Source of the DNA: an uncultured Chloroflexia bacterium
GTDB taxonomy: Bacteria; Chloroflexota; Anaerolineae; JAAYZQ01
Reading direction: 5' to 3'
DNA: 64,000 bases
NCBI GenBank assembly: GCA_963700285.1
Contig: CAVOXA010000010.1
Span: forward strand, 128,001-192,000
This document shows positions 38,911 through 64,000 of the stretch, piece by piece (the stretch's first letter is position 1; the number at the start of each line of letters is the position of its first letter). Under the pieces are notes generated by a model. It was not told where the DNA came from and searched no databases. It saw nothing but the letters and a program-made list of their open reading frames with translations. The position numbers and the translations under genes were made by a program.

Positions 38911-41235
38911 CTACAGGCCCAGCGCCCTATGGCACGCAGTCTCGCCTTTGCCCGGCTGCAAGTCATGGCCCAGCAAAACCCGCTCAAGCGTGAGAGGAAG
39001 CTGGTGATGGCGGATGCCGGTCGCGTGAAATACCGCGTTGGCCAGGGCTGGAGCCGTCCCAACAAGAACTGGCTCGGCCAAGTTCTTGGCTCCATATGGC
39101 CCCTCCGGAAAATTGGTCTCGATGAACGTTGCCTCGATCTCTGGCACGTCTAACGCCGTCGGGATCAGGTAGGTGTCATAGTTCAGTGACTGGGGATAGC
39201 CGTCTTGGTAGTTCATCTCCTCCAGCAAACCATAGCCCATTCCCTGGGCGATACCTCCGTACATCTGACCATAGGCACCCTGAGGATAGATAATCGTGCC
39301 GCCGTCGTGGGCTGCCCAGACTTTGGACACCGTAACCTGTCCGATAGGCAGATCAACTTCAACTTCGACCACATGCGCTCCAAAAGTATAGCAGTAGTAA
39401 GGGGTACCGGTGCCGGTCTCTTCATGCCACTCGATGTGAGGCATGCTCCATTTGCCCTGCACTGACAAGGTCAGCCCCATCTGACGCGCCCTGTCCACGA
39501 CTTGCTCAAAGGGCAGTTCATCTTCGTCAGGATTGACGTACAGCTCGCCATGGCGAGTCACTTGAGCTGGAGTACAATCGAGGGCATCAGCGGCGGCATA
39601 GCGCAACAGCCTGTCCAACTTTTCGGCTGCAACCCGAGCAGCGTTGCCGCCCAACATGGAAGCTCGCGAGGCAACTGTGGGTCCTGATTCGATGGCCGTA
39701 TCGGTGTCTGGCCTCAGAACGCGGATGCGAGCCGGTTCCACACCCAGAGTTTCGGCCGCGATCAAGGCAAAGACAGTACGACTACCTTGACCATAGTCGG
39801 TCAAGCCCGAGGTCAAGGTGACGCGGCAATCGTCCCCAATTCGCAGCGTTGTGTTGGCATAATCTGCACCTTCACCGCCCAAACTGCTGCCATGCATGTA
39901 GCAAGCGACTCCAATGCCCTTTCGCACCTCGCCTCTCAACAATGGAAACTCCCTGCGCTTGCGTTTCCAGTCAGACTTGTCCCGCACCCACTCGAGGCAT
40001 TCGGCCAGCTTGACCTCATGGTCGACGACGTTGCCCGACATAAAGCGGTCGCCTTGCCGGACACAGTTTTGCAGTCGAAAATCAATGGGATCGCGGTCCA
40101 ATCTGTGGGCCAGGTCATCCATAGCCTGTTCCACCGCGGCGGCGGCATCTGTGTTGCCAAACCCACGAAAAGCGCCACAGAAGCCGTTGTTGGTATAGAC
40201 CGTGGTTGTATCGACGTGAACCGCCTGGTACCGGTAAGCACCAGCGGCATGCAAAGATGCCCTGAGCATGGCCAATGTTGTCATAGAGCTGTAGCAGCCA
40301 CTGTCGGCCAGCATGTCGACTTTTGCTGCCTGCAAGTTGCCATCTTGATCGGCGCCGATGCGAAACTGGATCGACATCGGCTCGCGCTTGTACGAGGCCA
40401 TCATCGATTCCTCTCGACCCAGCACCAGCCTGACCGGTCGCCCTGACTTGAGAGCCAGCGCCGCTACCTGCCCCGATGTTTGGTAGCCAACATCATCCTT
40501 CCCGCCAAAAGAGCCGCCAACCTGGGGCGTGATGATGCGCACTTTTTCAGAAGGCAGTCCCAACACAGTGCACATATGCGTGTGGTTGATAAAGGGGCTC
40601 TGCCCATTATACCGTATGGTGACACTGCCATCAGGATGGGGAATGGCCAACGCTGCCTCAGGTTCCAGGTATGCGTGCTCTTGACGGCCGGTACGGAAAG
40701 TTTCTTCGTACAGCACAGGGCTTTGCTCCAGTATGGGTTCCGGATCCCCATAGCGGACGATATGCTTCGCGCAAAAGTTGCCCTGTTCAGAAACAGGAAC
40801 GAGCGGGACCTGGGGCGCGTCCGGTGCCAGGGCCTGTTCCGGATCAAAGACGCCGGGCAGCTCTTCCAGCTCCAACTCGATGGCATCGACCCCGGCCCGG
40901 GCCGCGGCCGCCGTCTCCGCGGCGACTGCGGCAATCGCATTGCCCACATAGAGCACCTTCTGGTAGGCCAGTACATACTGGTCCTTGATGGGCCAGCCCC
41001 ACAGACTGTGCTCCACAAAGTCGTCCGAGGTAATGACAGCTACCACGCCTGGCACTTGCAGGGCTGGTTCGACATCCAAACGCACGATTTTGGCATGAGG
41101 CACCGGGCTGCGCAGCACCTTTGTATGGAGCATGTCGGGCAGCTGAATATCACCCACATACCGGATTGTGCCCATCATCTTTTCCAGACCATCGACACCA
41201 TCAGCGGGCCGGCCTACGTACTTGAGCGTCGTCAT
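38911..41235 (-). CDS. Xanthine dehydrogenase-family molybdenum-binding subunit
   Basis: RSPVPHA, EHAYLEPE, VGGSFGGK, GAFRGFG, GQG, ASR, GAKNLAE. Confidence 0.92.
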   Translation of the reverse strand: MTTLKYVGRPADGVDGLEKMMGTIRYVGDIQLPDMLHTKVLRSPVPHAKIVRLDVEPALQVPGVVAVITSDDFVEHSLWGWPIKDQYVLAYQKVLYVGNAIAAVAAETAAAARAGVDAIELELEELPGVFDPEQALAPDAPQVPLVPVSEQGNFCAKHIVRYGDPEPILEQSPVLYEETFRTGRQEHAYLEPEAALAIPHPDGSVTIRYNGQSPFINHTHMCTVLGLPSEKVRIITPQVGGSFGGKDDVGYQTSGQVAALALKSGRPVRLVLGREESMMASYKREPMSIQFRIGADQDGNLQAAKVDMLADSGCYSSMTTLAMLRASLHAAGAYRYQAVHVDTTTVYTNNGFCGAFRGFGNTDAAAAVEQAMDDLAHRLDRDPIDFRLQNCVRQGDRFMSGNVVDHEVKLAECLEWVRDKSDWKRKRREFPLLRGEVRKGIGVACYMHGSSLGGEGADYANTTLRIGDDCRVTLTSGLTDYGQGSRTVFALIAAETLGVEPARIRVLRPDTDTAIESGPTVASRASMLGGNAARVAAEKLDRLLRYAAADALDCTPAQVTRHGELYVNPDEDELPFEQVVDRARQMGLTLSVQGKWSMPHIEWHEETGTGTPYYCYTFGAHVVEVEVDLPIGQVTVSKVWAAHDGGTIIYPQGAYGQMYGGIAQGMGYGLLEEMNYQDGYPQSLNYDTYLIPTALDVPEIEATFIETNFPEGPYGAKNLAEPVLVGTAPALANAVFHATGIRHHQLPLTLERVLLGHDLQPGKGETACHRALGL

Positions 41236-41717
41236 ACTTCCCTCCTGCCACCGGCCCGCCGCCGGGCTGCGGTTGTCTCCACGGCGTCGACAATCTGTTG
41301 ATAGCCAGTGCACCGGCACAGGGTGCCAGAAATCCCATCCCGTATCTCCTCACGGGTGGGATGCTTGTTCTGCGCCAAAAACGCCTCGGCGGCCATAATC
41401 ATGCCCGGCGTACAATAGCCGCACTGCACAGCACCGAATTCCTGAAAGGCCAGTTGTAGGTCATTCGGTCCACCATCGGCGCCACGAATCCCCTCGATGG
41501 TCGTCACGGCTCGGTCGCCGACCTGGGGCGCCAGAAGCTGGCACGAGTTTACGACTTGGCCGTCCAGTAGCACCGCGCAGGCACCACATTCGCCCACCTC
41601 ACAGCCTGGTTTGGGGCCGGTCAGGCCCAAGTATTCTCTCAGGAGTTGAAGCAAGCTGATACTGGCTGGCGCCTCCACTTCCACCGGGTTGCCGTTCAAC
41701 GTGAAACTTATCTTCAT
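41232..41717 (-). CDS. XDH-family 2Fe-2S subunit
   Basis: GCEVGECGAC, QCGYCTPG, CRCTGY. Confidence 0.93.
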   Translation of the reverse strand: MKISFTLNGNPVEVEAPASISLLQLLREYLGLTGPKPGCEVGECGACAVLLDGQVVNSCQLLAPQVGDRAVTTIEGIRGADGGPNDLQLAFQEFGAVQCGYCTPGMIMAAEAFLAQNKHPTREEIRDGISGTLCRCTGYQQIVDAVETTAARRRAGGRREV

Positions 41718-42568
41718 GCTTGCAGTACCTCATTCAATGCGCGCACGGTGAGCGCCGCGATGGCCCGTTCCTTGTATGGCGCCGACCAGCGCCCTCCTGA
41801 TTCTGCCATGAATAGCTCAGCCATGCGCTGCCCCGCCGCCTGTATCCGTTGTGCGGAAGGTCGTTGGCCCCAGAGCATCTCTTCGACGGCGGTTGCTCGC
41901 TGGAACCGGGCAAAGGCTGCTCCGGGCACCAGCCGAATCAGGACAACCTGGTTTTTGTTATCCAGCATGCCCATGGCCGCTACCGAAAGCCGGGCGATCG
42001 ACATTGCCCGGCGGCGGCCGATGCGCTGAAAGGCCGATCGGCTCCCTGCCGGCGCTACATCGAAAACGAACGCTTCGACCAAGCTGTCGCTGGAAAGCCC
42101 AGTTCGGTTCACACCGGTGACTAGATCGGCCACGGGAACCAGGTTCTCACCTGAACCGCTGACCACGACAGCACTGGCGCCCATGCAGACCAACGCTGGC
42201 AGCGTGTCGGCGCAGGCCGCTGCATTGACGACGTTTCCGCCTACGGTGGCAATGTTGCGGATCTGGGGGCTGCCGATTTGGCGACAAGCCTGGACCAGGA
42301 GAGGCGCCCTTTCCTGCAATCCTGGGTGGGCTGCGACCTCGGCGTGGGTTACCGCTGCGCCGATACGCACCTCGCCATCAACTTGGATGGCCCGAAGCTC
42401 CGGAACGTGTCCCACGTCCACCACTCTGTCACAGGAGCTCTCGCCGCTACGGAATTGGTTGACCAAGTCGGTGCCTCCAGCCAGAATGCGGCTTCTCAGG
42501 CCGGGCTCGCCGAGATAATCCACGGCCTCACGCAGGCTATGCGCACGTACGTACTCGAAATCTCCCAT
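41714..42568 (-). CDS. XDH-family FAD-binding subunit
   Basis: LAGGTDL, IGSPQIRNIATVGGN. Confidence 0.92.
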   Translation of the reverse strand: MGDFEYVRAHSLREAVDYLGEPGLRSRILAGGTDLVNQFRSGESSCDRVVDVGHVPELRAIQVDGEVRIGAAVTHAEVAAHPGLQERAPLLVQACRQIGSPQIRNIATVGGNVVNAAACADTLPALVCMGASAVVVSGSGENLVPVADLVTGVNRTGLSSDSLVEAFVFDVAPAGSRSAFQRIGRRRAMSIARLSVAAMGMLDNKNQVVLIRLVPGAAFARFQRATAVEEMLWGQRPSAQRIQAAGQRMAELFMAESGGRWSAPYKERAIAALTVRALNEVLQA

Positions 42569-42630
42569 ACTTTGATCTCCCTATTAACCGGAAGGCTGCA
42601 CAAGTGGCGGCTCACGGTCGATGAATAACA

Positions 42631-42658
42631 CCTCAGACTGGTTGCCTCCAGTCTGAGG
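42631..42658. terminator. Intergenic hairpin between the AKR and XDH genes
   Basis: CCTCAGACTGG-TTGCCT-CCAGTCTGAGG. Confidence 0.5.
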
Positions 42659-42737
42659 CCAAACAGGGTCAGCGCGAGATCGGTGACTCCAAGCCCGCAA
42701 CTACAATACCCAGTTTAGGTGGATTTGTCTCCCACTG

Positions 42738-43712
42738 CTACTCCCAACAGTTATGAGGCCAGGCGTGACCGGCAAGTCGCTCAACGACCTCAGGCGGCAA
42801 ACTGCCCTTGTCTGATGCCTGGGTATTGGCCTTGACGTGCTCGATCCGCCGCATCCCAGCAAGAACTGACGATACAGCCGGATCGCTCAAGCAGAAGCGT
42901 AGTGCCCCTTCGGCCAGTGTTTCAACGTCGTCACCGACCAGCCAGTCGAGTGCCTCGGCATGCTCAATTGCCTGCGCCAGTCGATCGCCGCCAAAGTAGT
43001 TGTTCCGCCAGTCATCCTCGGGAAAGGTCGTATCCAGGGTGAGTTTGCCCGTTAACGCACCCTCGTCCAGCGGGCAGCGGACAACAATGCCAACATCATG
43101 CTTCTGAGCCAGAGGGAAGAGCAGATCCTGGGGCTCTTGCTGGTAGATATTGTAGACGACCTGGCACACGTCGATCAGGCCAGTCTCGATGGCCTTTTGC
43201 GGGATATGGGAGTCCTCCAAGGGAAAGACCAGTGAAAGGCCAAAGCTGCGGACTTTGCCTTGTTCTTGCAACTGAACGGCGGCCTCTTTCCATTCGTCAC
43301 AATCGGCCCACTCGTCCATCCATACATGGAGCATCTGTACATCCAATTGCTCCCGGCCCAGGTTCTTGAGGCTTTGCTCGCTGTTTTCGATAATCCACGC
43401 TTTGGTGTATGCATCGGCAAAAGAATCGCCTGACTTGGGTCCGAAATTGTAGTTCATCGGGCGGACCTTGGTTGCCACGTATACCTCTTCAGGCCGACCC
43501 TTTAGTACCTGCCCAATCAACCGTTCGCTGTGACCATTGCCATAACCCATCGCCGTGTCGATGAAATTCACGCCCAAATCCAGGGCCAGATTCATTGAGT
43601 TGAGGGCGTCCTCGTCGGTGCTGCCTTTCCACCAATCGAGGCCAATGCCCCATGCTCCGTAGCCGATCTCGGAGACCTCAAATCCTGCTTTACCTAGCTT
43701 GCGATAGCGCAT
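42738..43712 (-). CDS. Aldo/keto reductase
   Basis: VSEIGYG, FIDTAMGYG, ATK, SLKNL...D...LH. Confidence 0.9.
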   Translation of the reverse strand: MRYRKLGKAGFEVSEIGYGAWGIGLDWWKGSTDEDALNSMNLALDLGVNFIDTAMGYGNGHSERLIGQVLKGRPEEVYVATKVRPMNYNFGPKSGDSFADAYTKAWIIENSEQSLKNLGREQLDVQMLHVWMDEWADCDEWKEAAVQLQEQGKVRSFGLSLVFPLEDSHIPQKAIETGLIDVCQVVYNIYQQEPQDLLFPLAQKHDVGIVVRCPLDEGALTGKLTLDTTFPEDDWRNNYFGGDRLAQAIEHAEALDWLVGDDVETLAEGALRFCLSDPAVSSVLAGMRRIEHVKANTQASDKGSLPPEVVERLAGHAWPHNCWE

Positions 43713-43762: not shown

Positions 43763-44629
43763 CTAGCTTAGCAGCTCGTGCAGGTGGTAGGAGTGTTTGC
43801 CAAAGGACCCACCAAAGTTCATGGCTCCGATCTGTACGACGCCTGGGACCTGAGCAGCTGCATTGATTGCTACTTTCATGGCACGCTGCATCAGGACTGG
43901 CGTGGAACCGAACATCAACAGGTTGAGGATCGACTCAACCCCATCGGGGACTTGGCTGTCTTCGATCCTGTCCCGCAGCGCGGGCACATAGTCCAGCTCG
44001 CGAAAGACCTGCTCCAAACCATAGCCCATGGGCGCTACCCCGTCCACGGCAGCGATGGCATCCTTGGCAGCCTTGACCGCCAGTACAGAAGACGCCTCAG
44101 ATTTGGCAAAGCACACGATATGCCCATCTGTGCCACGGGTCGAAAGGTGGACCGACTTTTCATAGGTGAATTCGCCGGTCATCGTCGGGACGACGCTCAG
44201 ACGGCGCTCACCCAGATCTCGTTCCGTGTCATAGCCTTGCCACCGCTCCGAGGTGAGGGCATACAGGTCCACTTTCTCGGTCGCCTCCGCATCCTCTACC
44301 ATGAAATCATAGATGGCCAGGGTCGGTATGAGGGTGCCCAGTACAATGCGCAGAGAAAGCTCCTCGCTAAAGGCCTGCCGGGCCTCGGGCGTCATCGTAC
44401 AGGAAACAATCACCCCCGGCCGGCCGTCGGGTGTTTCCGCGGGATGCGCCATCCGCTCTATTCCGGCATTGATCCGTGATCCCAGTTCACTCGAACCAGC
44501 GGCACCGACGAACTGGTGCGCGCCGCCCAAGGCCACGTCTTCAGAGATTGCCGTCAGGACGAGCCGGACCACTTCCAAGTCCCACGCCTCCGCAAAAGTG
44601 TCCTGAATGAGAACGTCGTTAATCTTCAT
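43763..44629 (-). CDS. Divergent formylmethanofuran:tetrahydromethanopterin formyltransferase (Ftr)-family protein
   Basis: INDVLIQDTFAEAW, AGIER...ETPDGRPGV and C-terminal PGVVQIGAMNFGG..GKHSYHLHELL match recalled Ftr signatures. Confidence 0.8.
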   Translation of the reverse strand: MKINDVLIQDTFAEAWDLEVVRLVLTAISEDVALGGAHQFVGAAGSSELGSRINAGIERMAHPAETPDGRPGVIVSCTMTPEARQAFSEELSLRIVLGTLIPTLAIYDFMVEDAEATEKVDLYALTSERWQGYDTERDLGERRLSVVPTMTGEFTYEKSVHLSTRGTDGHIVCFAKSEASSVLAVKAAKDAIAAVDGVAPMGYGLEQVFRELDYVPALRDRIEDSQVPDGVESILNLLMFGSTPVLMQRAMKVAINAAAQVPGVVQIGAMNFGGSFGKHSYHLHELLS

Positions 44630-44653: not shown

Positions 44654-45709
44654 CTACAGATCTTCATTGACCACCATGACTTTGAGCCCTATTCTCTCGT
44701 TGGCAAAGCCAAAAGCCTTTTGAATATCATCCAATGAGTAGTGGTGGGAGATAATGGTATCCAGCCGGACATTGCCCGATTGCATCAGCGCCACCGCCTT
44801 TTCATAGTCGGCACGAGTTGAATCATGCGTACCAACAAACCGAAGCTCCTTATAGTGAATCACATCCAGATTCAAGGTGACGGGGTCGCTGAGTGTTGCT
44901 GCAAAATACAGGACCTGGCCCTGCTTGGCCGACATTTGGAACGCCTCTTCCAGCACGGTAGGATCGAGACCCGCCGCACTCACCACGACGTCAGCACCAA
45001 ACCCCCCGGTAATCTCTTTCACTTTGTCTATCAGGTCCGTGTCTACCTCATGCGGTTTGTCTGCGTGAAGAATGTGGTTTGCCCCAAGGTCTCCGGCAAC
45101 ACTGAGCCTCTTTGGTTTCAAGTCGATGGCAATGACCTGCATGCCGCGGCTCTTTAGGAGCTGCACGTGGATGAGACCAATAGGACCGGAGCCAATGACA
45201 ACACCAAAGCCGCCCATAGGAATATCGATTAGCTTGTTGTTGCCATTGATGCAGCAAGCCAACGGTTCTGCAAAGGCCGCCTCGATGATGTCCACGTTAT
45301 CGGGCACCGGAACCAAGTTCTTGTAAGGATAGACTGCGTATTGCCCAAAGCCGCCGGCAATATAGCCGGCATCCACGCACAGGTTCTCGTGCCCGCGGCG
45401 GCAGTAACGGCAATAGCCACAGGGCAACCTGCCATCAGGCACCACCCTGGCTCCAACACCCAAACTGGGTTTGTCAGGCACCTCGTCCCCAATTGCATGG
45501 ATGGTCCCCGAAAGCTCGTGTCCCATCTGAAAAGGGAACTTGATCTTCCAGCCCGAGGGCTTTCTACCATTGTAGAGATTGAGATCCGTTCCGCAAATGC
45601 CACAGGCAGCAACCTTGACCACCACCTCATCGCTTCCTGGCTGAGGAATCTCGCTTTCCTTGAACACAAACTGGCCGTTCTCCTGAATCAACGCGTTTTT
45701 CGTCTTCAT
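44654..45709 (-). CDS. Zn-dependent polyol/alcohol dehydrogenase (MDR family)
   Basis: CGICGTD, GHE, CGYCRYCRRGHENLC, EPLAC, GSGPIG. Confidence 0.9.
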   Translation of the reverse strand: MKTKNALIQENGQFVFKESEIPQPGSDEVVVKVAACGICGTDLNLYNGRKPSGWKIKFPFQMGHELSGTIHAIGDEVPDKPSLGVGARVVPDGRLPCGYCRYCRRGHENLCVDAGYIAGGFGQYAVYPYKNLVPVPDNVDIIEAAFAEPLACCINGNNKLIDIPMGGFGVVIGSGPIGLIHVQLLKSRGMQVIAIDLKPKRLSVAGDLGANHILHADKPHEVDTDLIDKVKEITGGFGADVVVSAAGLDPTVLEEAFQMSAKQGQVLYFAATLSDPVTLNLDVIHYKELRFVGTHDSTRADYEKAVALMQSGNVRLDTIISHHYSLDDIQKAFGFANERIGLKVMVVNEDL

Positions 45710-45748: not shown

Positions 45749-47149
45749 TCACGACAAAGAATAGTAGGGTGATACTTCCAACCCAGCGTCGGCAAACCGT
45801 TTGATTGCGTACGCCTCAGCCTCTGAAACAATCTCTTCCTCATCAAAGCGAAGCAGCTTGCGTTCGTGCACGAGCACCTGGCCGTCAACGATCACGGTCT
45901 CTACGTCGCTGGATGCACTGGCACAGTAGACAAGGTTGTTCACAATGTTGTTGATCGGCCGCATGTGGGTAGCGGTCAGATCCACCAGTATGACGTCGGC
46001 CTTTTTTCCAGTCTCCAACGAGCCGATCTCGTTCTCCATTCCCAGGGCCCGAGCCCCGCCCATGGTAGCCATTTCCAACACCTGATAGGCACTGAGAGCA
46101 GCAGCGTCCATTACGCTTACCTTTTGCAGGAAAGCCGCCGTGCGCATTGCCTCGAACATGTCCATGTTGTCGTTGACAGCACAGCTATCGGTTCCCAAAG
46201 AGACCACCACGCCGGCATCCAACATCTTGGTGATAGGCGCTACCCCGTCAGCGACCTTCATGTTGCATTCAGGATTGTGGGCCACCGATGTGCCCGTGTC
46301 CTTCAACAACTGGATATCATCATCTGACAGCCAGATGCAGTGAGCGCCCAATACGTCCGGTCCCAGCAGCCCGATATCGAACAGGTAGCGAGTCGGAGTT
46401 GTTCCACAGAGGTTGTGGATGTTTTCCCACTCAAATTTGGTCTCGGCGACATGGATGTGAATGCCTACCTCATTCTGAGTGGCCAGGGCGCGTACCTTTT
46501 GCATCAACTCGCCGCCACAGGAATTGGGGCAGGCCAATCCGTAGCGAAAGGTAACCAGGCCATCCTTCTGGTGCTGGCAGTGCTGGATCAACTGGTCCGC
46601 AAGGTCCAGGGCGATATGTTCGGGGAGCAGCATGCCTTCTTTGCTCCATTGATCCACATCGGTCAAGGTCAGCGTTTGTACCACACGCAAGCCCATTTCC
46701 TCAAAGACATCGATCGTCTCTGGAGGTGTAGCCCACTCCATGTTCAGCAGACAGGTGATACCTGACCGCAGCGCGTCAACACAGCCCAGCCGAGAGGACT
46801 GGATCTGCAAACCAAAGTCACCGGCGAGATAGCCCTGGACAGCCATCACGATGCGCGGACTCGACACATTCTCAATCCAGTCTACCAGCTCGAGATCGTC
46901 CGGCGTTCCCTTTAGAAAATTCTGTAGAAAGTGGTGGTGCGTATCGATGAGCCCAGGTAGAACAGCGCGATGGTGAGCATCGATGACTTGGCCGGCAGAG
47001 TACTGGGCAACCAAGGTCTCTGTCGCGCCGATGTCCACGATCCTGCCATTCTTGATGGCCACCGCGCCATCGTAGAGAATGGTACGGTCCCTATCCATGG
47101 TAATGACCACGCCGTCGCGGATGAGCAGGTCGACCTTCATTGGGTTCAT
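45749..47149 (-). CDS. Metal-dependent amidohydrolase (MtaD/AtzA-like deaminase family)
   Basis: PGLIDTHHH, HIHVAE, AHC, HNPECNMK, LGTD, GSLETGKKAD. Confidence 0.88.
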   Translation of the reverse strand: MNPMKVDLLIRDGVVITMDRDRTILYDGAVAIKNGRIVDIGATETLVAQYSAGQVIDAHHRAVLPGLIDTHHHFLQNFLKGTPDDLELVDWIENVSSPRIVMAVQGYLAGDFGLQIQSSRLGCVDALRSGITCLLNMEWATPPETIDVFEEMGLRVVQTLTLTDVDQWSKEGMLLPEHIALDLADQLIQHCQHQKDGLVTFRYGLACPNSCGGELMQKVRALATQNEVGIHIHVAETKFEWENIHNLCGTTPTRYLFDIGLLGPDVLGAHCIWLSDDDIQLLKDTGTSVAHNPECNMKVADGVAPITKMLDAGVVVSLGTDSCAVNDNMDMFEAMRTAAFLQKVSVMDAAALSAYQVLEMATMGGARALGMENEIGSLETGKKADVILVDLTATHMRPINNIVNNLVYCASASSDVETVIVDGQVLVHERKLLRFDEEEIVSEAEAYAIKRFADAGLEVSPYYSLS

Positions 47150-53559: not shown

Positions 53560-54186
53560 CTAGCCAGCCCTGACGGCCCCTGGCGCAGTGGCGTCATAGC
53601 CGTCGGCGCCGATCAGATCAGCGAACTCTTGGGTGACGCCGCCGCCGCCGACCATTACCCTGACTTGGTCCCGGAGACCAGACTCCTGCATCTGCTCGAT
53701 CACCCGTCTCTGCTCCGACATTGTGGTGGTCATCAGGGCAGACATGGCCAGAATGTCCGCATCATATTCTTCGATGGCCGCCATGAACTCGTCCCCGGTT
53801 ACATTGATGCCCAGATCATGCACGCGAAAGCCCTCCGCGGTCAGCAGGGTTGAGACCATGGCCTTGCCAATATTGTGCAAATCGCCAAAGACGGTGCCGA
53901 TGACCACAGTACCAAGGCTTACCCGCTCAGCTCCCTGCCTGGTGATCTCGGACTCGATGATGGGCGTTGCCGCCAACATGGCCTCTGAAGAGCCAACCAG
54001 ATCCGGCAGCCACAGTTCGCCTTTGCCAAACCCGTTGCCAACCTCGCGGATGGCCTCGGTGAGGATATCCAAGGCTTGAAGAGGATCAATTCCCTCGTCG
54101 ACTGCTCTTTGAGCCCAATCTGCGGCCCCTGCAGCGTCATATTCCAACACTGCCTGCTTCAGACCTCCAAGTATTACGTTCGACAT
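53560..54186 (-). CDS. Corrinoid (B12-binding) protein, copy 1 (3' end may be frameshifted)
   Basis: LWLPDL, GDLHNIGK (DxHxxG), SALMTTT, VGGG. Confidence 0.9.
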   Translation of the reverse strand: MSNVILGGLKQAVLEYDAAGAADWAQRAVDEGIDPLQALDILTEAIREVGNGFGKGELWLPDLVGSSEAMLAATPIIESEITRQGAERVSLGTVVIGTVFGDLHNIGKAMVSTLLTAEGFRVHDLGINVTGDEFMAAIEEYDADILAMSALMTTTMSEQRRVIEQMQESGLRDQVRVMVGGGGVTQEFADLIGADGYDATAPGAVRAG

Positions 54187-54336
54187 GATCTGCTCCTCAC
54201 CCACCTCAAACTGAACATAGCCACCACCCACTTGCGGTTCCCCTTCCGATTGCCGCCTTGAACGATCAGCTCGTACCAGTAAAAGAGAACCACAAGCAGA
54301 TGGCAGTTGCCTCAACTCATTGGACTATCGACCATC

Positions 54337-55749: not shown

Positions 55750-56465
55750 TGTCAGAGGCGTGTCGAACCCAGGAGCTGCTCAGGCAACGATCGTCTCGCT
55801 GGCTGGCAGCCTTACCCGACTCGATCAGTTGCTTGCAGAGTCCCGCGGCCTGCGCCGCATTCTCGGCCCATCCATCGGCACCAATCTCGGCTGGCAAATT
55901 CGGGAGTGACCGGGCCGCCACCCACGATGATATAGTACTTTTCTCTCTGCCCCATCTCTGAGAGGAGGTCGATCACCTCTTTTTGATAGGGCAGCGATGC
56001 TGTCATCAGGCTGGAAAGGGCCAAGATATCCGCCCGCTGCTCTTTGGCTGCCTTGATGAATTCCAGCGGAGAGACATTGACCCCCAGGTCGGTCACTTCG
56101 AATCCGCCGACGGTCAGCATCGTGGCGACCAGGTTCTTGCCGATGTCGTGCAGGTCGCCTGACACCGTGCCGAGCACGACGCGACCGCCGGACTCTTTGC
56201 TCGCCCGTGGCCTGGAGGTGGGGCTGCAGTATGGCCATGCAGCGCTTCATCTTTTCGCCCGCGATCATCAGATCGGGCAAAAAGATCTCAAAGGCTGCGA
56301 ATTGGGCACCAATCTCATCCATGGCTTCAGTCGCGACGTCAATGGCTGCCATGACGTCTGCCCCTTCAGCGACCAGGCGTTCTGTAATCTCTTCGACCTC
56401 TTCGTAGCTGCTTCATCTGACAGCAATGCCTCGCGCAATACCAACACATCCTCTTGTTTGCTCAT
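55750..56465 (-). CDS. Corrinoid protein, copy 2, frameshifted (3' end approximate)
   Basis: EIFLPDLM, GDLHDIGKNLV, SSLMT, VGGGP, IGADGWAENA across frames. Confidence 0.85.
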
Positions 56466-56529: not shown

Positions 56530-57953
56530 TCAGCTTGGCTGCTTTCTGCAGCCTGCACAATCCGCCTCAGTTCCCGCTCCTGCTCCTCTGGCAGCGGTGG
56601 CACCTGGTAGGTCTGCAGCAGATCGCGGGCACGCGTCTCGAGCGCGGTCCGCCATATCCCTGGACCCGCTGGCAGCCCACGCGTCATAGCCCTGCCGGTC
56701 GGCCAGGCGCGGCAGGAATTGCTCCTGGCGCCAAAGACTCAAGGTGTGCATACTGTCCAGGTAGTTGCCTGCATGACCAATCTCTCTGATGACATCCAGG
56801 GCCAGGGTCTCTTCCGTCACCGGGATGCCTTCCAGAATACGCCCGACCATGCCATTGATCTCGTTGTCGATCACCAATTGAACCGGAGACCACATCTTTT
56901 CGGTCTCCAGGGCACCACCATTGGAGATCAGGTTCGAACCGGCCTCGGCCAGCATCACTACAGTCATAGCCTTTTCCAGAGCAGACTGCTCATCCAGACA
57001 CTTGGAGTCGGTGATTGGAAACTCGGGGTGAGAAGGAATCCCATAGCGCCTGCCAATCTGGGCCAGGGCTGCGCCCAAAAGGCCGATTTCGACTGTACCT
57101 ATGCACAATCCGGCGTCCCGCACGTCCATCAAGTGGGGATAGCTGGCCAAGGTGACAGGCGCACCGGGCTGAAACAGTTGCAGCAGGACCACCGCAGCCA
57201 GATGCTCGGCGTTTTGCAGCACCAGGGTGCCGGCCAGAGTCACCGGGCTGTTGGCCCCAAGGGTGGGACCGGGCAAGGATGCAGACGGGGTGACCGGCTC
57301 GGACATAGGCCAGGCCGCCCTCGATCTGATCCTCGGGATAGGTCAGCGGTGAGATCGAGTTGATCTGGCCGTAGACCTGCTGATTGGTGACCTCGGCCAT
57401 CTCGATCACCCAAGGAACACATCCACCAAAGACACCGCCTGCCGTGACCTTTTGCGTGTTGCGCATCTGCTCGGCTGTGACCCATCTCGATCATAATCGG
57501 CAGAGGCAAGTTTGAGATGGTGGTTGTCGGCACAATGGCCAGGTGGATCTCGTCCATTGCGTCTACCAACCGCACCAGGGGACCAACATCCTCAAAGGTA
57601 GCCTCTCGCCGGACGTTTGATTCGAGATCCAAAAGATGCAAGCCAGGATGTGACTGGAAATACAGCCGATCTCCACCGACCTCCAGATCATAGTCGCGAT
57701 TTCTGGCTCGGATGGTGAATTGGGAGGGACACTGCTCAATGCATTCTTGGACCAGGGGTTCAGGAAAGTACACCCGACCGCTGGCGCTGTCAACCTGGCA
57801 GCCACCTCGCTCGAGAATGCCGAGCGCTTGGTCGCTGGCAAAGACGACACCCACCTGGCTCAGGATCTGCATCGTGCCATCGTGAACCAAATCCAAGTCT
57901 GCGTTAGGCAGTGGGCCTTTAGGGTCTCGAAAGACATGGCTTGCCAGCGGCAT
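56530..57953 (-). CDS. MttB-superfamily corrinoid methyltransferase, non-pyrrolysine, copy 2, frameshifted
   Basis: VHDGTMQIL..VGV, SISPL, GANSPVTLAG, TDSKCLDEQSALEK. Confidence 0.85.
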
Positions 57954-57995: not shown

Positions 57996-58048
57996 ATGAT
58001 ATAATATCTAGTCAAAGACATCATATCATATCTCAGCCGCTTTGTCAA
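57996..58048 (-). promoter_or_regulatory. Sigma70 promoter of the methyltransferase operon, overlapped by a palindromic operator
   Basis: Minus strand TTGACA (58048-58043), 17 bp, TATGAT (58025-58020); imperfect palindrome ATGATATAATATCT-N6-AGACATCATATCAT at 57996-58029. Confidence 0.75.
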
Positions 58049-58538: not shown

Positions 58539-58589
58539 TTGACAACGCCCTGAAACTATGATATAATCTTTCCTAGCTCTTGTTATATC
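58539..58589 (+). promoter_or_regulatory. Consensus sigma70 promoter of the GntR-ABC operon with a second operator copy
   Basis: TTGACA (58539-58544), 17 bp, TATAAT (58562-58567); GATATAA-N16-TTATATC at 58560-58589. Confidence 0.8.
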
Positions 58590-58642
58590 CATTTCGGTGT
58601 CAAAGCTCAGACGCCTGGTACTTGTATGGTGAGGTCGTGACG

Positions 58643-59413
58643 ATGGTATCCGACATTCTGGATCGCGCTCTAGACAATCGCACAGCCGGCATCCCACTCT
58701 ATCGCCACATTGAGGAGGATCTCCTCGGCCAGATTACACAAGGAGACCTCCAGTCAGGCGAGATGATCCCCGCTGAACGAGAACTGTGCGAGCACTATGG
58801 CGTGAGCCGCATCACCGTTCGACGCGCGATTGGCGAGTTAGAGACTCGGGGCTACGTCCAACGATACCAGGGCAAGGGTACGTTCGTAAGCCGCACCCGG
58901 ATTCGGCGTGAGATGGGACACCTCCTGAGCTTCTCTGAGGAAATGCGATCCCAGGGTCACGCCCCCGGATCCAAGCTACTCAATCTCCAGCATTGTCCAG
59001 CCGACAAGTCCATCGCCTCTGCCCTCCAGTTGGACAAGGGAGAACCGGTCTGGATTGTCGAACGATTGAGGCTTGCCGACGATGAGGTCATCTCACTAAG
59101 CATTTCCTACCTACATCTGCCTCGGGATGTCTATTTGACCCCACTCGAACTCGGCGGGCACAGCTCGTTGTGGTCGTTGCTTGCCAACAAGGGGGTACAC
59201 ATCACCGAAGGCAACGCCTCAGTTCGAGCGACTGTGGCCGATAGCCATTATGCGCAACTGTTGGGCATAGAGGAAGGCGACCCTCTATTGGTACGCGAAG
59301 GCGTAAACTACTCAAGTAGAAAGCAGCCGATTCCTGTGGAAGCCTTTGAGATCGTCAGTCGCGCGGATCGCTACCAGTATTCGTTGCACTTGATCCACCA
59401 GACGGTCGAGTGA
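58643..59413 (+). CDS. GntR-family (HutC/UTRA) transcriptional regulator
   Basis: IPLY..I, IPAERELCEHYGVSRITVRRA, QGKGTFV, SFSEEM, RLRLAD. Confidence 0.92.
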   Translation: MVSDILDRALDNRTAGIPLYRHIEEDLLGQITQGDLQSGEMIPAERELCEHYGVSRITVRRAIGELETRGYVQRYQGKGTFVSRTRIRREMGHLLSFSEEMRSQGHAPGSKLLNLQHCPADKSIASALQLDKGEPVWIVERLRLADDEVISLSISYLHLPRDVYLTPLELGGHSSLWSLLANKGVHITEGNASVRATVADSHYAQLLGIEEGDPLLVREGVNYSSRKQPIPVEAFEIVSRADRYQYSLHLIHQTVE

Positions 59414-59579: not shown

Positions 59580-61029
59580 ATGACGGCTAAGAAAAGCTTG
59601 TTCCTGATCATGGTTCTGGTGTTACTCTTGGCTGCATGTGGCCCAACACCCGAGCCCCAGACGGTCGTGCAGACCGTAGAGGTCGAAAAGACGGTTATCG
59701 AGACAGTTGTGGAAACCGTCGAAGTTGAGGTCGAAAAGACGGTTGTCGAGACGGTTGTGGAAACCGTCGAGGTCGAAGTCGAGGTTCCCGTCATCGAGAC
59801 TGTCGTCGTAGAGGTCGAGGGCAAGGCTCCCGAGCAGATCTCCTTTGCCGGTCACCAGTACTTCAACCTGTCCTTCGGCGCAGCCCCTGCTCCCTTGGAG
59901 GACATGAAGGCCAGGGCCACAGGAAGCCTACCCTGGTATGGACATCCAGTTGATCATGCAGCCTCTGGATGCCAACAAGTGGCACGACAATCTCACCACC
60001 TATTTCATCGCTGAAGATCAGACGGTGGACATCTTGTACACCGCAGGCTACTGGATAGCCGAGTTTGGTGCCGCCGACTGGCTGGTGGACCTCAAGGAGG
60101 TGGTGGATCCGGAGCTTTTGGCCAAGTACGATCCCGCCTACCTTGATGTATTCACCTACGACGGCAAGCTGCTGGGCATCGGCCCCTCGTGGGGCGGCAT
60201 CGGCGGTCTGTACTATCGCTCCGATCTGTTGGATGAGTATGGCATCGAACCGCCCGAGACCTACGATGACATCATCGCTGCCTGCGACACGATTCAGGCG
60301 GACCAGCCCGAGCTGGGTTGCTGGGACTGGCCGGCGATGAGGAACGTTGTCCTGGTCAACCGCTGGTCCGAGTATCTTTATGGCTTTGGCGGCACATACC
60401 TGAACGAGGACGGAACCTGCGCCATGAATTCGCCAGAGGCTGTTGCGGCCCTCGAGTTCATGACCATGCTCTTTGAAGAGGGCTATAGCCCGGAGGAAGC
60501 ACTGTCATGGAAGGAAGAGGACGCCAACGTGCGCTTCGCGAGTGGCGAGACCATCTTTTTCAGCGGGCGGCAGGACCTTCTCTTCTGGATCAACAACCCT
60601 GATAGTTCCAAGGTGGTGGATATGTGGGGCTTTATCCCGAACCCGGCCCAGCCTGGTGGCAAGCACTCTGGCTATACCGAGTTCTGGGCATTCTCCATCA
60701 GCAAGTTCAGCGACAATCCTGAGGAGGCCCTGGGCGTCCTGGAGGAATGGGGAAGCTTTGACACCATGAAGAACTTTAACCTGGCTTGGGGACCGATCCA
60801 GGGTCACGGCGATGTATACACCGATCCCGACGTTCTTGAGGCCAACCCGTACCTGCCTCTCGTCGAAGAGATCGCCTTGACCGCTCTGGCGCCTATGCCC
60901 AGCGAGAACTTTGGTGAGGTGTCTGATATCCTGCAGGCCGAGATCCATTCGGCTCTCTCAGGCCTGAGCACACCCCAAGAAGCACTTGACAATGCCTGCG
61001 CTGCCATCGACGCCATAAGCATGCCCTAG
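59580..61029 (+). CDS. Carbohydrate-type ABC transporter substrate-binding lipoprotein, frameshifted near 59920
   Basis: Lipobox LAAC, V/E/T linker, LYYRSDLL...PPETYDD, FASG, AISK-like SISKFS. Confidence 0.85.
59679..59774 (+). repeat. 48-bp tandem repeat (2 copies) encoding EVEKTV(I/V)ETVVETVEV
   Basis: GAGGTCGAAAAGACGGTT(A/G)TCGAGAC(A/G)GTTGTGGAAACCGTCGA repeated. Confidence 0.8.
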
Positions 61030-61177: not shown

Positions 61178-62074
61178 ATGAAGATCAGGCTGCGAGAGCC
61201 AGCTCTAGCTGCTACTATTTATTCTACCAGCCTTTGTATTTGTGGCACTCTTTCTTTATTATCCCCTTCTTCAAACTGCTTTTATAGCTTTTTCAAACTG
61301 CACCGGACCGTAGACTGGCTGAATGACACCTTTGTCGGGCTGCAGAACTATGCTGCCGTATTCAGGAGCGAGGCATTTCGATCTTCGTTTCTGTTTACTC
61401 TATACTTTACAGTCATGACGGTTGCCCTTGAGCTTTGCCTGGGATTGGGCATGGCCATCGCGACCTTTTCAGTCCACCCCAGGCTTCGCGGTATCTTGAG
61501 GGCAGTGATGGTGGTACCATGGGCCATCCCCCCCATCGTTTCGGCAATGCTGTGGAAATGGCTGTTCCATGCCGATGCCGGTGTATTTGCCTATCTTTTG
61601 ACCAGCAGTGGTCTGGTCGAGAACCTCCCTCCTTTTCTCACCGACCCGACCTTGGCCATTCACAGCATCATCATCGCCTCGGTGTGGAAGAACGCATCCA
61701 TCATGGGCATTCTCCTGCTGGGGGGTTTGGCATCCATCCCAAAGGATGTCTACGATGCCGCCAAGGTGGATGGAGCCCGGACCTGGTTTCGCTTCCGGCG
61801 GGTGACCTTGCCCATGCTTCTGCCAACCATCTTGGTCACCGTCCTGTTTCGGACTCTGCTGGCGCTGCGCATGTTCGAGCTTTCCTATGGAATGACTGGC
61901 GGCGGACCTGGCACGACGACAGATACACTTAGTACCTTTGCCTACAAGTACTACTTTACCTACTCCAGGTTTGGTGTAGGGTCTTCGTATGCCATGGTCA
62001 TATTTGCCATCGTTCTTGCCGTGGCCATCATCTATGTGAGTAGGGTACGGGGAAACCTGAGGTTCAAGGAATGA
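61178..62074 (+). CDS. Carbohydrate ABC permease (MalF-like); 5' part probably frameshifted
   Basis: FVGLQNY, PWAIP, EAA loop YDAAKVDGA, TGGGPG. Confidence 0.88.
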   Translation: MKIRLREPALAATIYSTSLCICGTLSLLSPSSNCFYSFFKLHRTVDWLNDTFVGLQNYAAVFRSEAFRSSFLFTLYFTVMTVALELCLGLGMAIATFSVHPRLRGILRAVMVVPWAIPPIVSAMLWKWLFHADAGVFAYLLTSSGLVENLPPFLTDPTLAIHSIIIASVWKNASIMGILLLGGLASIPKDVYDAAKVDGARTWFRFRRVTLPMLLPTILVTVLFRTLLALRMFELSYGMTGGGPGTTTDTLSTFAYKYYFTYSRFGVGSSYAMVIFAIVLAVAIIYVSRVRGNLRFKE

Positions 62075-63002
62075 GCACAGCCAATCGATATCAACGCCGA
62101 CGGCTATTCGGCCGGGTGTGGGAGCTCGTGGTCACCATTCGCTGTTGTTGCCTTTTGCCTGGGGCCCCTGTTCTGGGTGCTGTCAACTTCTCTGAAACCG
62201 ATGGGGGCCGAATACCTGATTCCGCCGGAACTCTGGCCATCCAAGCCAACTCTGCAATCCTACGAGGTCATTCTGGGAATATCCCAACCCGGTCAGAGCG
62301 GACGATTCAGAGCAAAGCTCCATAACGGGCGCGGAGGAGGTAGGGGTGGCATCAACCCTTGGCTTTCTCACTCCCATTCGAAACAGCCTGATTGTCGCAT
62401 CCACAGTCGCCATCTGCGCTCTGCTGGTTTCAGCATTGGCAGCCTATGCCATTGCGCGCTTGCGCTTCCGGTGGAAGATCCAATCCCTGATGCTTCTGTG
62501 GGTTGGCGGGTTGCTGCCAGCGGTCATGGTCATCGCACCTACCTTTGTCCTCATGAGATCTCTCGGTTTGCTCAAGACCCTGCCAGCGATGATCCTGCCC
62601 AACATTGCCTACAATATCCCGCTGGCCACCTGGTTGCTGGCCGTCTATTTCTCCACGCTGCCATGGGAGCTGGAGGATGCGGCCAAAGTTGATGGCTACA
62701 AACCCTTCCAGATCTTTTGGAAGGTGATCCTGCCACTTTCGGCACCAGGGCTGTTCTCGGCGGGCGTCTTTGCCTTTCTCGGCTCGTGGGGTGAGTTTAT
62801 GCTGGCCAGCGTCGTGAGTATGGGCATCGCCGAGGTACAGACGGTGCCGGTGGCGATTCTGAATCTGTCTTTCGAGTATCGCTACCAGTGGACCTGGATC
62901 TCAGCGGCGATCATCGTGTCGGTGGGCCTGATGGTTTTTGTTGCACTCATCTTCCAGCGCTGGGTAATTCAAGGTTTGACAGCGGGTTCGGTCAAGTATT
63001 GA
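62071..63002 (+). CDS. Carbohydrate ABC permease (MalG-like), frameshifted
   Basis: TSLKP, NSLIVA, AAYAIARL, LEDAAKVDG, GLTAGSVK. Confidence 0.85.
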
Positions 63003-63124
63003 GGCCCTGTGGAGAGCGCACAATTCCCAGTCTGATAGCGCAGGGGAAAGGCTCAATGGCGCCGTACAACCCGTGTTGAAAGGGCACCGGCCGGTGTCAA
63101 GCAACAAGATGAAAGGGATTCTTT

Positions 63125-64000
63125 ATGGCTGAAGTCCGCGTTGAGTATATGTGCAAGCTGTTCGGTCAAGTCAAGGCACTAGACGAGGTTAGCTGCACAT
63201 TTGAGGATGGCCAACTCACAGTGCTGGTTGGGCCGTCCGGCTGCGGCAAAACGACCCTGCTCCGCTCAATCGCGGGGCTGGAGGAGCCCTCAAGCGGCTC
63301 GATCTACATCGGTGAAGAGAACGTCGACGGCGCTCCCGCCTGGGAGCGCGATCTGGCCATGGTGTTTCAGAGCTACGCGCTCTATCCTCATATGTCCGTC
63401 TATAAGAACATCGCTTTCCCGTTGCAGGCTACAAAGACCCCCAAGGATGAGATCAAGTACTCGCGTACACAACACAGCCAGAATCCTTCAGATCGAGAAG
63501 CTGCTTGAGAGAAAGCCACGGGAGCTGTCAGGTGGGCAGATGCAAAGGGTTGCCCTCGGGCGGGCAATCGTTCGTGAACCTGCCGTTTTTCTGATGGACG
63601 AACCCCTCTCCAACCTGGATGCCAAACTGCGGGTGATCATGAGGGCCGAACTCAGGCACTTGCAGCAGCAGCTCGGCGTCACCACCATCTATGTCACCCA
63701 CGACCAGGCGGAGGCCATGACTCTGGCCGACAAACTGATTGTGATGAACGATGGCTGCATACAGCAGGTCGGAAAACCCGAAGACGTCTATCGCTACCCG
63801 CAGAACAAGTTCGTGGCCGGCTTTATTGGCAGCCCCCCAATGAACTTTATCGACTGCCGATTGGACACGGCCCAAAATGCCTTGATCAGTGACCTCATGG
63901 AACGCAAGCTTGATCCCAATGTGGTCCAAGCTGCGACCACACAGGGCTCCAACGAACGGATCCTCGGAGTGAGGCCCGAGGACCTGACTGCAGAGCCAAC
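63125..64000 (+). CDS. Carbohydrate ABC ATP-binding subunit (MalK-like); frameshift near 63465, runs off window
   Basis: [21 protein letters not shown], then [23 protein letters not shown] in the shifted frame. Confidence 0.9.

Follow-up and report, generated by a model that had tools for sequence, protein, structure and literature searches.

From position 38911 onward, a 64,000-nucleotide stretch of an uncultured Chloroflexia bacterium (the window: G000:C10:128001-192000, from a genome of 7.05 Mb that is 89% complete) carries a divergent cluster of about 25 genes. In it, pyrrolysine-free B12 methyltransferases stand next to a sugar kinase, an aldolase, an amidohydrolase, an Ftr-like protein and an XDH-family molybdoenzyme. 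The evidence supports one conserved, co-regulated and undescribed anaerobic cluster. We tentatively read it, with less than even confidence, as a catabolic route for an N-methylated guanosine, possibly ring-opened 7-methylguanosine, which would most likely derive from RNA turnover. The genes appear to call for a ring of the guanine type, a methyl group on nitrogen and a sugar moiety resistant to ordinary nucleosidases. Methylguanosines would fit the ring and the N-methyl group, and ring-opened 7-methylguanosine would fit all three. The latter, the imidazole-ring-opened (formamidopyrimidine) form, is a ribosylamine-bearing aminopyrimidinone with formyl and methyl groups on N5, and it resembles the pyrimidine half of the formyl-pterin substrate of Ftr (5-formyl-tetrahydropterin). 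A substrate with methyl, sugar and heterocycle parts had been proposed in a preliminary description of the window, and the gene content supports it.

Conservation and regulation of the cluster

The minus-strand run spans 19 kb, with 15 intergenic gaps of -4 to 169 nt. It encodes an MttB, a corrinoid protein, an MtmB, a second corrinoid protein, a second MttB, an FGGY kinase, a DeoC/DhnA aldolase, a FAD_binding_4 protein (GlcD-like) and a CCG/Fe-S protein (GlcF-like), followed by an amidohydrolase, a Zn-dependent alcohol dehydrogenase, FTR, an aldo-keto reductase (AKR) and an XDH M/S/L trimer. The plus-strand unit consists of GntR-UTRA, SBP_bac_1 (the solute-binding protein, SBP), two permeases and an ATPase, and extends beyond position 64000, where it includes genes for a sulfatase, for another amidohydrolase (64% to that of the minus strand) and for a UroD/MtaA-like protein. 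All genes named in the preliminary description were found at the claimed place, in the stated order and strand, with Pfam matches above cut-off.

The Ftr-like protein, which is single-copy in G000, was used as retrieval marker. It belongs to a clade that stands apart (two 50% clusters score 460-480 bits, the following one 295) and retrieved 24 GTDB loci and 37 metagenome loci with a common core. The records comprise Anaerolineae (the label carried by the loci nearest to the window), Caldilineaceae, two Spirochaetes, a Clostridia metagenome-assembled genome (MAG) and another MAG that bears the label Thermotogae; Ca. Formimonas warabiya also has the cluster in its complete genome. Kinase, aldolase, GlcD/GlcF, amidohydrolase, Zn-dehydrogenase, Ftr-like protein and AKR form a recurring block with shuffled flanks. 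The Zn-dehydrogenase gene lies immediately upstream of ftr in 51 of the 61 loci, the remainder being at a contig edge (7) or arranged otherwise (3). The fetched regions of the 24 GTDB genomes measure 1.7 to 81 kb each and were scored at identity thresholds of our own setting. They hold the Zn-dehydrogenase in 23 genomes, the amidohydrolase in 22, the AKR in 21, the kinase in 19 and the aldolase in 18. Any B12 methyltransferase is present in 20 (MttB2 in 16, MtmB-like in 10, MttB1 in 2), XDH or AOR in 13 and ring-opening genes in 8. The objection, raised beforehand, that the genes might not co-occur elsewhere is clearly contradicted by this core.

In one sample of 401 genomes of the class, the Ftr-like protein is rare (7 genomes), and the cluster was not found in the same-genus genome G001. 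An MtmB-like orthologue (69% or more) occurs in exactly the same 7 genomes, and its sister clade alone in 2 more. An SsnA-like enzyme is found in 45/401 genomes, including all 7 that carry the cluster (hypergeometric 1e-7; about 2e-4 when only 4 families are counted). In the whole of genome G000 there are some 33 MttB-like loci and no fewer than 13 corrinoid proteins, which points to a broad scavenger of methylated compounds.

The abundance of MttB-like loci, together with the many XDH and kinase paralogues of G000 and the variation of MttB1, MttB2, XDH and importer between genomes, might suggest that sugar, betaine and purine modules with no relation to each other became neighbors by chance in an MttB-rich genome. 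This explanation is largely refuted and now seems very remote, as the core synteny persists across phyla despite shuffling, the Ftr-like and MtmB-like proteins share the same rare distribution, genes are swapped like for like and the two transcription units share an operator.

The shared operator at both divergent promoters, noted before, is indeed present. The pattern TGATATRA-N16-TYATATCA lies at 57997 and 58559 and overlaps outward-facing sigma-70 promoters (11/12 and 12/12 consensus positions). The shuffle mean of 0.02 is not independent, the pattern being derived from the same two sites. Independent support comes from genome G015, where two copies with one mismatch lie at the equivalent place between mttB1 and gntR; a single further site, with two mismatches, was found elsewhere in the 7 Mb of G000. 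A terminator scan remained near chance overall (19 found versus 13.8 +/- 3.6 expected), and a search of 12 sources for riboswitches was negative. Contigs of two sediment metatranscriptomes contained pieces of the SBP gene (4 of the 16 listed runs were covered); these contigs lack a silent control and are not counted as expression.

Several genes of the window (mttB1, corrinoid 1, mtmB, SBP, permease 2 and ATPase) are frame-broken, while their G015 orthologues are intact. At 57274, 57481, 59919 and 63457 the window has one base more than near-identical sediment-metagenome contigs, and these four breaks are therefore probably assembly errors.

The heterocycle and the methyl group

The nature of the ring is suggested mainly by the amidohydrolase, in which Gln73, Glu233, His267 and Asp318 are kept in 34/34 sequences. 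According to the accessible parts of two reports, such a Gln/Glu/His/Asp set defines the attack of GuaD-class enzymes on the 2-amino-4-oxo-pyrimidine core (PMC12828455, PMC13054789), and the corresponding set of N2,N2-dimethylguanine hydrolase is Q74/E243/H275/D326 (PMC13054789). The score against the guanine deaminase NCBIfam is 164, with a cut-off of 375. In the MTA (methylthioadenosine) deaminase 4F0R, a Met occupies the Gln site, the Glu of IWPTE stands where the cluster enzyme has Ile, and His-Ala stands where it has Ala-Cys. The Met after HxH, the ribose-binding Glu and the His after strand 4 are, we assume, the residues that define MtaD. Membership of the MTA/SAH (S-adenosylhomocysteine) deaminases was thus rejected on finding Gln, Ile and Ala-Cys.

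The same comparison bears on a 5'-substituted adenosine as substrate (methylthioadenosine, S-adenosylmethionine products or arsenosugar precursors), degraded via a redox variant of the shunt to dihydroxyacetone phosphate (DHAP). The whole-protein matches of the amidohydrolase are MTA/SAH deaminases, a sulfatase adjoins the cluster in G000, and AKR, dehydrogenase, kinase and aldolase would yield DHAP and a substituted acetaldehyde. However, the amidohydrolase differs from 4F0R at all of the above residues (Gln/Met, Ile/Glu, Ala-Cys/His-Ala), the sulfatase lies outside the conserved core and the amine dehydrogenase swap described below would have no role. We consider this the least credible of the alternatives.

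The heterocycle is thus probably of the guanine or pterin type, judging from these residues, and the ring part of the earlier proposal stands in this narrower form. Its oxidation as the sole fate probably does not, since reductive ring-opening genes are linked to the cluster. Several loci run on into SsnA-like, PreA-like and dihydropyrimidinase genes, and these or a carbamoyltransferase gene occur in 8/24 fetched regions. In Formimonas, the genes for a BMP importer, a corrinoid protein, an MtmB-like enzyme, YgeY, carbamoyltransferase, SsnA-like, XDH and PreA-like proteins form one run, which is separated from the core by about 35 kb of unrelated genes. YgeY and dihydropyrimidinase score above their family cut-offs. 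Together with the YgeY genes, the SsnA-like, PreA-like and dihydropyrimidinase genes suggest that the ring is probably opened reductively, beyond mere oxidation.

The XDH trimer is replaceable: AOR-family genes occupy its place in other loci. The XDH large subunit and four cluster homologues keep Gln, Arg and Glu motifs, which we take to be those of purine hydroxylases. Pairs of AOR-family genes in the XDH place stand beside SsnA-like, PreA-like or hydantoinase genes in loci L016, L021, L027, L034, L040, L077, L079, L080 and L096, and are candidates for tungsten-dependent purine hydroxylases or reductases. A separate locus of G000 (C1:534000-542600; L002, L003) holds an amidohydrolase, a GlcD/GlcF-like pair, SsnA-like and PreA-like genes, as well as XDH fragments that are 75-78% identical to those of the window, with truncated middle and large subunits; it adjoins fmt and an XRE-cupin regulator. 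This locus has the appearance of a rearranged remnant that retains the ring-opening half. The formyltransferase beside it was set aside as housekeeping Fmt (268 versus 201 bits).

The methyl group is addressed by the B12 methyltransferases. At the pyrrolysine position of 1L2Q the MtmB-like enzyme has Tyr, not the amber codon of Pyl202. No pylS or pylB match above cut-off was found in G000 (89% complete), and PylS was not found in five other cluster genomes. The mtmB gene of the window does contain an in-frame TAG (55177-55179), but it lies 20 codons before the pyrrolysine position. Orthologues have sense codons of the W/L/L/M/Y/Y/Y type in this column (7 orthologues covering the site; 8 rows including two duplicates of the same genomes, the near-identical contigs not spanning it). 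Reading this TAG as pyrrolysine was rejected, given its wrong position, its lack of conservation and the failure to find PylS and PylB. Two tRNA-Pyl candidates (ARAGORN at a relaxed threshold, 412 calls that are mostly noise) were not used. A marginal PYLIS_3 match (38.9 versus 38 bits) lies inside the stop-free mttB1 of G015.

At the position of the carboxylate-binding R312 of MtgB, MttB2 has G, S or A and never Arg (17/17). At the cation-pi residues Y97 and F356 it has S or A and L, I, M or V, respectively (17/17). An invariant His is offset by one column from H348 in the pairwise alignment and may be its equivalent. In the part of the report that was available, R312 is kept in all characterized acidic quaternary amine demethylases (PMC13080624). 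The MttB2 orthologue was absent from the complete Formimonas genome and two MAGs, and present in 2/5 genomes tested. MtmB-like genes (40-73%) share the ftr contig in all five genomes tested, so that, of the cluster methyltransferases, the MtmB-like enzyme alone tracks the cluster. The B12 methyltransferases called at the outset thus stand as pyrrolysine-free enzymes, with MttB2 not of the simple betaine type, whereas a "multiply methylated" substrate is only weakly suggested because MttB1 and MttB2 are optional.

A link between MtmB-like enzymes and purines is seen in the sister clade, of which five loci were fetched. All five lie near purine-type importers, amidohydrolases or XDH genes: two adjoin xanthine permeases (one also adenine deaminase and NCS1 importers) and three adjoin BMP-type binding proteins. 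The Formimonas xanthine permease and adenine deaminase of these loci score above cut-off. Two regions of Formimonas (G063 C1:1858001-1878000 and 1540001-1560000; L114, L115) contain at least three sister-clade non-pyrrolysine MtmB modules, accompanied by genes for xanthine permeases, for NCS1 importers, for adenine deaminase or for XDH. In G000, another locus (C15:55800-59200; L006) encodes a corrinoid protein and two tandem pyrrolysine-free MtmB-like proteins (34% to that of the window), and continues with a class III aminotransferase, a malic-enzyme-like protein and an amidohydrolase.

The Ftr-like protein, the sugar block and the importer

The Ftr fold that had been assigned from the sequence is borne out by the structure model (pLDDT 92.9; Foldseek E 5e-31, TM 0.91). 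The oxyanion-stabilizing Glu of FhcD is Glu252, in the accessible text (PMC6926001). In 3/3 canonical Ftr rows this position holds Glu, whereas the cluster proteins have Asn (37/38) or Thr (1/38). By our own count the residue is Glu246 in 1M5H, which we assume to be equivalent. The clade has gained an invariant Asp168, His170, Glu206 and Gln207 and has lost an 11-residue loop. Judged by these residues, the Ftr-like protein is not a canonical formyltransferase. Methenyl-tetrahydromethanopterin (H4MPT) cyclohydrolase (MCH) was not found in 4/5 cluster genomes tested and was present in one, in a search that covered MCH among the H4MPT genes. A Sediminispirochaeta MAG (G065 C28, C73) has two MCH genes above cut-off, which is unusual for a spirochaete or reflects contamination.

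As the Ftr fold is kept (TM 0.9), a pterin cofactor or glycoside (methanopterin fragments, folate-like compounds or glycosylated pterins) was considered. Ftr would retain its pterin site, the amidohydrolase would be a pterin deaminase, the dehydrogenase would cut C9-N10 and kinase and aldolase would trim the ribitol. The Gln motif suits 2-amino-4-oxo-pteridines, two Clostridia-type genomes have an ECF importer instead of the ABC importer, and GH4 alpha-glycosidases occur in two loci. However, the obligate MtmB-like enzyme would have no obvious role, the methyl groups of methanopterin being C-linked. Phosphodiesterase and aromatic-ring genes are missing from the core, MCH was not found in most of the genomes tested, as noted above, and the MtmB sister clades accompany xanthine and adenine genes. 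A pterin substrate is accordingly seen as distinctly improbable.

The GlcD-like and GlcF-like genes are present as described, and their role can be refined. The glcD gene occurs in 15/24 genomes and an amine dehydrogenase gene in 4/24, never together, and in three loci the latter takes the identical slot. The best solved relatives of the swapped-in enzyme are native amine dehydrogenases (6IAQ, E 1e-79). Because of this swap, the GlcD/GlcF pair probably oxidizes a C-N bond. GlcD-like itself scores 127 versus 568 bits for TIGR00387, and it lacks the HxGDGxxH and GEHG motifs, presumably the metal-binding His/Glu motifs. Searched by fold, its model (pLDDT 63) matched D-lactate dehydrogenases best. 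The second GlcD/GlcF pairs of the C1 locus and of Formimonas are not mutually orthologous.

If the amine dehydrogenase kept its usual chemistry, the substrate might also be another N-methylated compound, with an amino-polyol on a guanine- or isocytosine-like ring. The amidohydrolase would free the sugar amine, and its deamination by the amine dehydrogenase or GlcD/GlcF would yield an aldose. This would pass through AKR, Zn-dehydrogenase and kinase to central metabolism, the aldolase becoming optional. GuaD-class enzymes release alkylamines, according to the available parts of the reports (PMC12828455, PMC13054789); SIS, PfkB and GH4 genes are interleaved in one genome and the SBP is of the sugar type. 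Yet no abundant natural compound of such build could be named, and this alternative appears rather improbable. Its limiting case would be a ring-free N-methylated aminopolyol, such as the methylated aminopentanetetrol of lipid head groups, but this would leave the deaminase motif, the Ftr-like protein and the 7/7 SsnA link unexplained.

The aldolase keeps its Schiff-base Lys, the DH motif and the GG and GR phosphate site in 26/26 sequences, scores 248 versus 241 bits for NF005556 and is, by sequence, a putative ketose-1-phosphate aldolase. In comparison to the Met-Met-Tyr-Pro-Arg of MJ0400, it has Glu-Met-Met-Pro, so that Glu-Met replaces Tyr and no Arg follows. The combination of AKR, Zn-dehydrogenase and a xylulokinase-like enzyme is reminiscent of the oxidoreductive route for pentoses. 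A search of 86 loci (1.12 Mb) with five single-sequence queries from G000 revealed neither a nucleoside hydrolase nor a nucleoside phosphorylase; the absence of such genes from the window had been pointed out before and now extends to these loci, although G000 does hold them elsewhere.

The fin neighborhood of Clostridium scindens, as far as the accessible part of that preprint goes (bioRxiv 10.64898/2026.02.13.705874), likewise contains a kinase, a class I aldolase, dehydrogenases for alcohols and aldehydes, and a step that breaks a C-N bond. By analogy, the cluster might trim the ribityl chain of riboflavin, F420 or lumazine to formylmethyl and carboxymethyl derivatives. But flavins lack both the 2-amino group for a GuaD-class enzyme and an N-methyl group, and the RibF-type kinase and glycine-reductase subunits of fin were not seen in the cluster loci. 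Together with the missing riboswitches and the riboflavin binder being the weakest BMP match, this makes a flavin very unlikely.

The importer varies among genomes (CUT1 ABC, BMP-type ABC or ECF). The BMP of a spirochaete locus is nearest to BMP/PnrA-family lipoproteins, and the riboflavin binder 4IIL is last of 14. The membrane protein of Formimonas is an ECF S component by ESM Atlas (QueT only at 0.89), which gave no hint of the SBP ligand. A paralogous catabolic locus of G000 (C10:1338001-1372000; L004, L005) encodes an enolase-family enzyme, MttB, a CUT1 ABC importer, two FGGY kinases and two DhnA aldolases, as well as an amidohydrolase, a 5'-nucleotidase, a HAD hydrolase, a UbiD decarboxylase, SDRs and an AOR (51% to that linked with the cluster). 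A C-linked heterocycle-sugar is a possible substrate of this locus.

Proposed route, annotated features and significance

From the observed gene content and order, operator, conservation, co-distribution and active-site residues, we infer the following steps for an N-methylated guanosine. The compound would be taken up by the CUT1 ABC importer (BMP-type ABC or ECF elsewhere) and sensed by the UTRA regulator. The amidohydrolase would exchange the 2-amino or 2-alkylamino group for oxygen. The sugar would then be freed or linearized by the invariant block of amidohydrolase, Zn-dehydrogenase, Ftr-like protein, AKR and kinase, an assignment made because the cluster contains no hydrolase or phosphorylase. 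The Ftr-like protein may act on the N5-formyl-aminopyrimidinone through its new His/Asp/Glu site. AKR and dehydrogenase would convert the aldose via the polyol to the ketose, which the FGGY kinase would phosphorylate and the aldolase would split into DHAP and a short aldehyde. Subsequently, GlcD/GlcF or the amine dehydrogenase would oxidize the remaining C-N bond, and the MtmB-like enzyme (with MttB2 and MttB1 optional) would move the N-methyl group via the corrinoid protein to folate. The XDH trimer or AOR-family proteins would set the oxidation level of the ring and may also oxidize the aldehyde. Finally, SsnA-, PreA-, dihydropyrimidinase- and YgeY-like enzymes would open the ring as in the 2,8-dioxopurine pathway. 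Within the same class of substrate, the ribose might alternatively be oxidized and the base then eliminated by the Ftr-like protein.

Several observations weigh against this route. Its weakest link is the sugar block, which would fit only a ring-opened or otherwise unusual form: the hydrolase and phosphorylases elsewhere in G000 could cut ordinary methylguanosines, and ribose needs no special kinase or aldolase. In two spirochaete MAGs, both possibly incomplete, no orthologue of the aldolase was found (best 35-36%), and DHAP release is therefore not obligatory. The closest solved relatives of the SBP bind disaccharides and sulfoquinovose, not nucleosides. For the amidohydrolase, whole-protein searches put MTA/SAH deaminases first, and its Gln motif equally suits pterins, isocytosine and triazines. 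Ring genes lie inside the fetched region in just 8 genomes, and family cut-offs are missed by the SsnA-like (273 versus 444 bits), PreA-like (167 versus 335) and carbamoyltransferase proteins (215 versus 453, YgeW). The seven cluster genomes are related (5 genera, 4 families), so that the nominal 1e-7 overstates the co-distribution. To our knowledge, native amine dehydrogenases act on small alkylamines, not on amino-pyrimidines. The activity of non-pyrrolysine MtmB has been demonstrated on tetramethylammonium and choline alone, in the accessible part of the source (PMC13044021). In PMC11912376, no statement was found that EmtA/AbeA are MtmB family members, and this link was not used. Other substrates had been set aside on general grounds: caffeine-type bases alone, which fit poorly for want of a sugar; 2'-O-methyl nucleosides, whose O-methyl group would prevent aldol cleavage; queuosine, which carries no methyl group; and mycosporines and methylated inositols, which also fit poorly.

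Among the closest known systems is the 2,8-dioxopurine pathway (bioRxiv 10.1101/2025.04.24.650524), whose XDH-family, SsnA-like, dihydropyrimidine-dehydrogenase-like, hydantoinase, carbamoyltransferase and YgeY genes have counterparts linked to or co-distributed with the cluster. In the available part of that preprint, however, the pathway begins at free urate, and methyltransferase, sugar block and Ftr-like protein are all missing from it; the cluster homologues mostly stay under the family cut-offs, and AOR-family proteins often replace XDH. With the NdmH/GuaD-class deaminases (PMC13054789, PMC12828455, each in part) the amidohydrolase shares the Gln after strand 1 and the Glu/His/Asp set. 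In contrast to these, it forms a separate subfamily (GLAC-P/E-NS after strand 4), is closer to MTA deaminases as a whole protein and sits within a sugar-cleaving, B12-dependent cluster. The methyltransferases share with MtgB/MtcB/MtpB/MthB (PMC13080624) and MtqB (PMC13044021), as far as the accessible texts go, the non-pyrrolysine MttB/MtmB folds, cognate corrinoid proteins and MtgA/MetH-type or UroD-type partners. They differ in that MttB2 lacks R312, Y97 and F356 and the MtmB-like clade is tied to purine genes, not to simple quaternary amines. The Ftr-like protein has the fold of Ftr/FhcD (1FTR, 1M5H, 1M5S, 6S6Y; PMC6926001, in part) at TM 0.90 and about 32% identity, but shows the Glu to Asn exchange, the lost loop and the new Asp/His/Glu/Gln set, and MCH was not found in 4/5 genomes tested. 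The fin genes act on a heterocycle-polyol. In the part of the preprint available, they employ another kinase family and glycine-reductase chemistry in place of a flavo- or amine dehydrogenase, and lack a deaminase, an Ftr-like protein and B12 methyltransferases.

Table 1. Features annotated in the window, with their positions and the basis of each assignment
Feature	Position	Strand	Basis or remark
XDH-family molybdoenzyme large subunit	38911..41235	-	Pfam MoCoBD; under every NCBIfam cut-off; AOR-family genes instead in other genomes
XDH-family 2Fe-2S subunit	41232..41717	-	Pfam
XDH-family FAD subunit	41714..42568	-	Pfam
12-pair hairpin in akr/xdhM gap, possible terminator or processing site	42630..42659	-	Consensus match only
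Aldo-keto reductase, core gene	42738..43712	-	Pfam; 21/24 GTDB genomes
Ftr-fold protein, catalytic Glu to Asn236; cluster marker	43763..44629	-	Clade-specific Asp168/His170/Glu206/Gln207
Zn-dependent medium-chain (polyol-type) dehydrogenase, core gene	44654..45709	-	Pfam
Amidohydrolase subtype III, guanine-deaminase-class Gln73/Glu233/His267/Asp318	45749..47140	-	PMC12828455, PMC13054789
GlcF-like Fe-S/CCG subunit	47161..48288	-	Pfam
GlcD-like FAD dehydrogenase (VAO/PCMH fold)	48302..49642	-	Native amine dehydrogenase instead in other genomes
Class I DhnA-type aldolase	49752..50507	-	Schiff-base Lys kept
FGGY kinase, xylulokinase nearest (343 bits, cut-off 380)	50565..52058	-	
MttB2, pyrrolysine-free MttB without MtgB betaine-binding Arg	52084..53532	-	PF06253, 482 aa stop-free
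Corrinoid protein 2	53560..54189	-	Pfam
Pyrrolysine-free MtmB-like methyltransferase, Tyr at Pyl position	54337..55718	-	Frame change near 5' end; TAG 55177-55179
Corrinoid protein 1, frame changes in assembly	55812..56463	-	Pfam
MttB1, pyrrolysine-free MttB, frame changes	56530..57953	-	Two are 1-nt indels absent from near-identical contigs
Sigma-70-type promoter TTGACA-17-TATGAT	57997..58048	-	Overlaps inverted-repeat operator 57997-58028
Sigma-70-type promoter TTGACA-17-TATAAT	58539..58590	+	Overlaps operator 58559-58590
GntR/HutC-type regulator with UTRA domain	58643..59413	+	Pfam
CUT1 solute-binding lipoprotein, 1-nt indel at 59919	59580..61029	+	Nearest solved: MalE3, trehalose/maltose BP, SmoF
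Two ABC permeases, second with frame change	61178..63002	+	Pfam
MalK-type ATPase, 1-nt indel at 63457, runs past window end	63125..64000	+	Pfam

Downstream of the XDH genes, at a distance of 2.5 kb, lies a split transketolase (34563-36445, minus strand, N and C halves), which was rejected as a cluster member as it was seen in no related locus. Next to it, a 1318-aa protein (30488-34444, minus strand) combines, by eye, a BTAD/AAA-type regulator with a C-terminal oligopeptide-binding (SBP family 5-like) domain. In two Anaerolineales MAGs, a 470-aa protein is encoded between gntR and the kinase gene (L030:2289-3698, L031:2456-3865). It has no Pfam or NCBIfam match, and its N-terminus, by eye, resembles a NodB/deacetylase fold.

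The literature searched, which covers few subscription journals, held no description of this gene set, in agreement with the preliminary description, and no anaerobic route for methylated nucleosides. The parts come from known families, and their combined logic resembles that of the reductive purine pathway, of corrinoid demethylation and of the fin genes. There is a fair chance that the cluster represents a new kind of nucleoside pathway. A bolder reading, which we consider unlikely, is that this pathway would be the first to degrade a methylated or ring-opened RNA nucleoside, for instance 7-methylguanosine, without oxygen. It would be free of glycosidase and phosphorylase and would combine an Ftr-derived enzyme turned to formamidopyrimidine chemistry, redox/aldol trimming of the sugar, a pyrrolysine-free MtmB as oxygen-independent purine N-demethylase and a tungsten AOR in place of XDH.

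The turnover of tRNA and rRNA supplies sediments, soils and reactors with modified nucleosides. For the degradation of methylated ones, the cluster is a complete, regulated candidate, with a sequenced enrichment-culture host in Ca. Formimonas warabiya. If the proposed route is correct, three orphan branches would gain a function: the purine-linked pyrrolysine-free MtmB, the non-formyltransferase Ftr and the AOR-family proteins of purine operons. The methyl groups of RNA would then be a one-carbon source for acetogens and, downstream, for methanogens.

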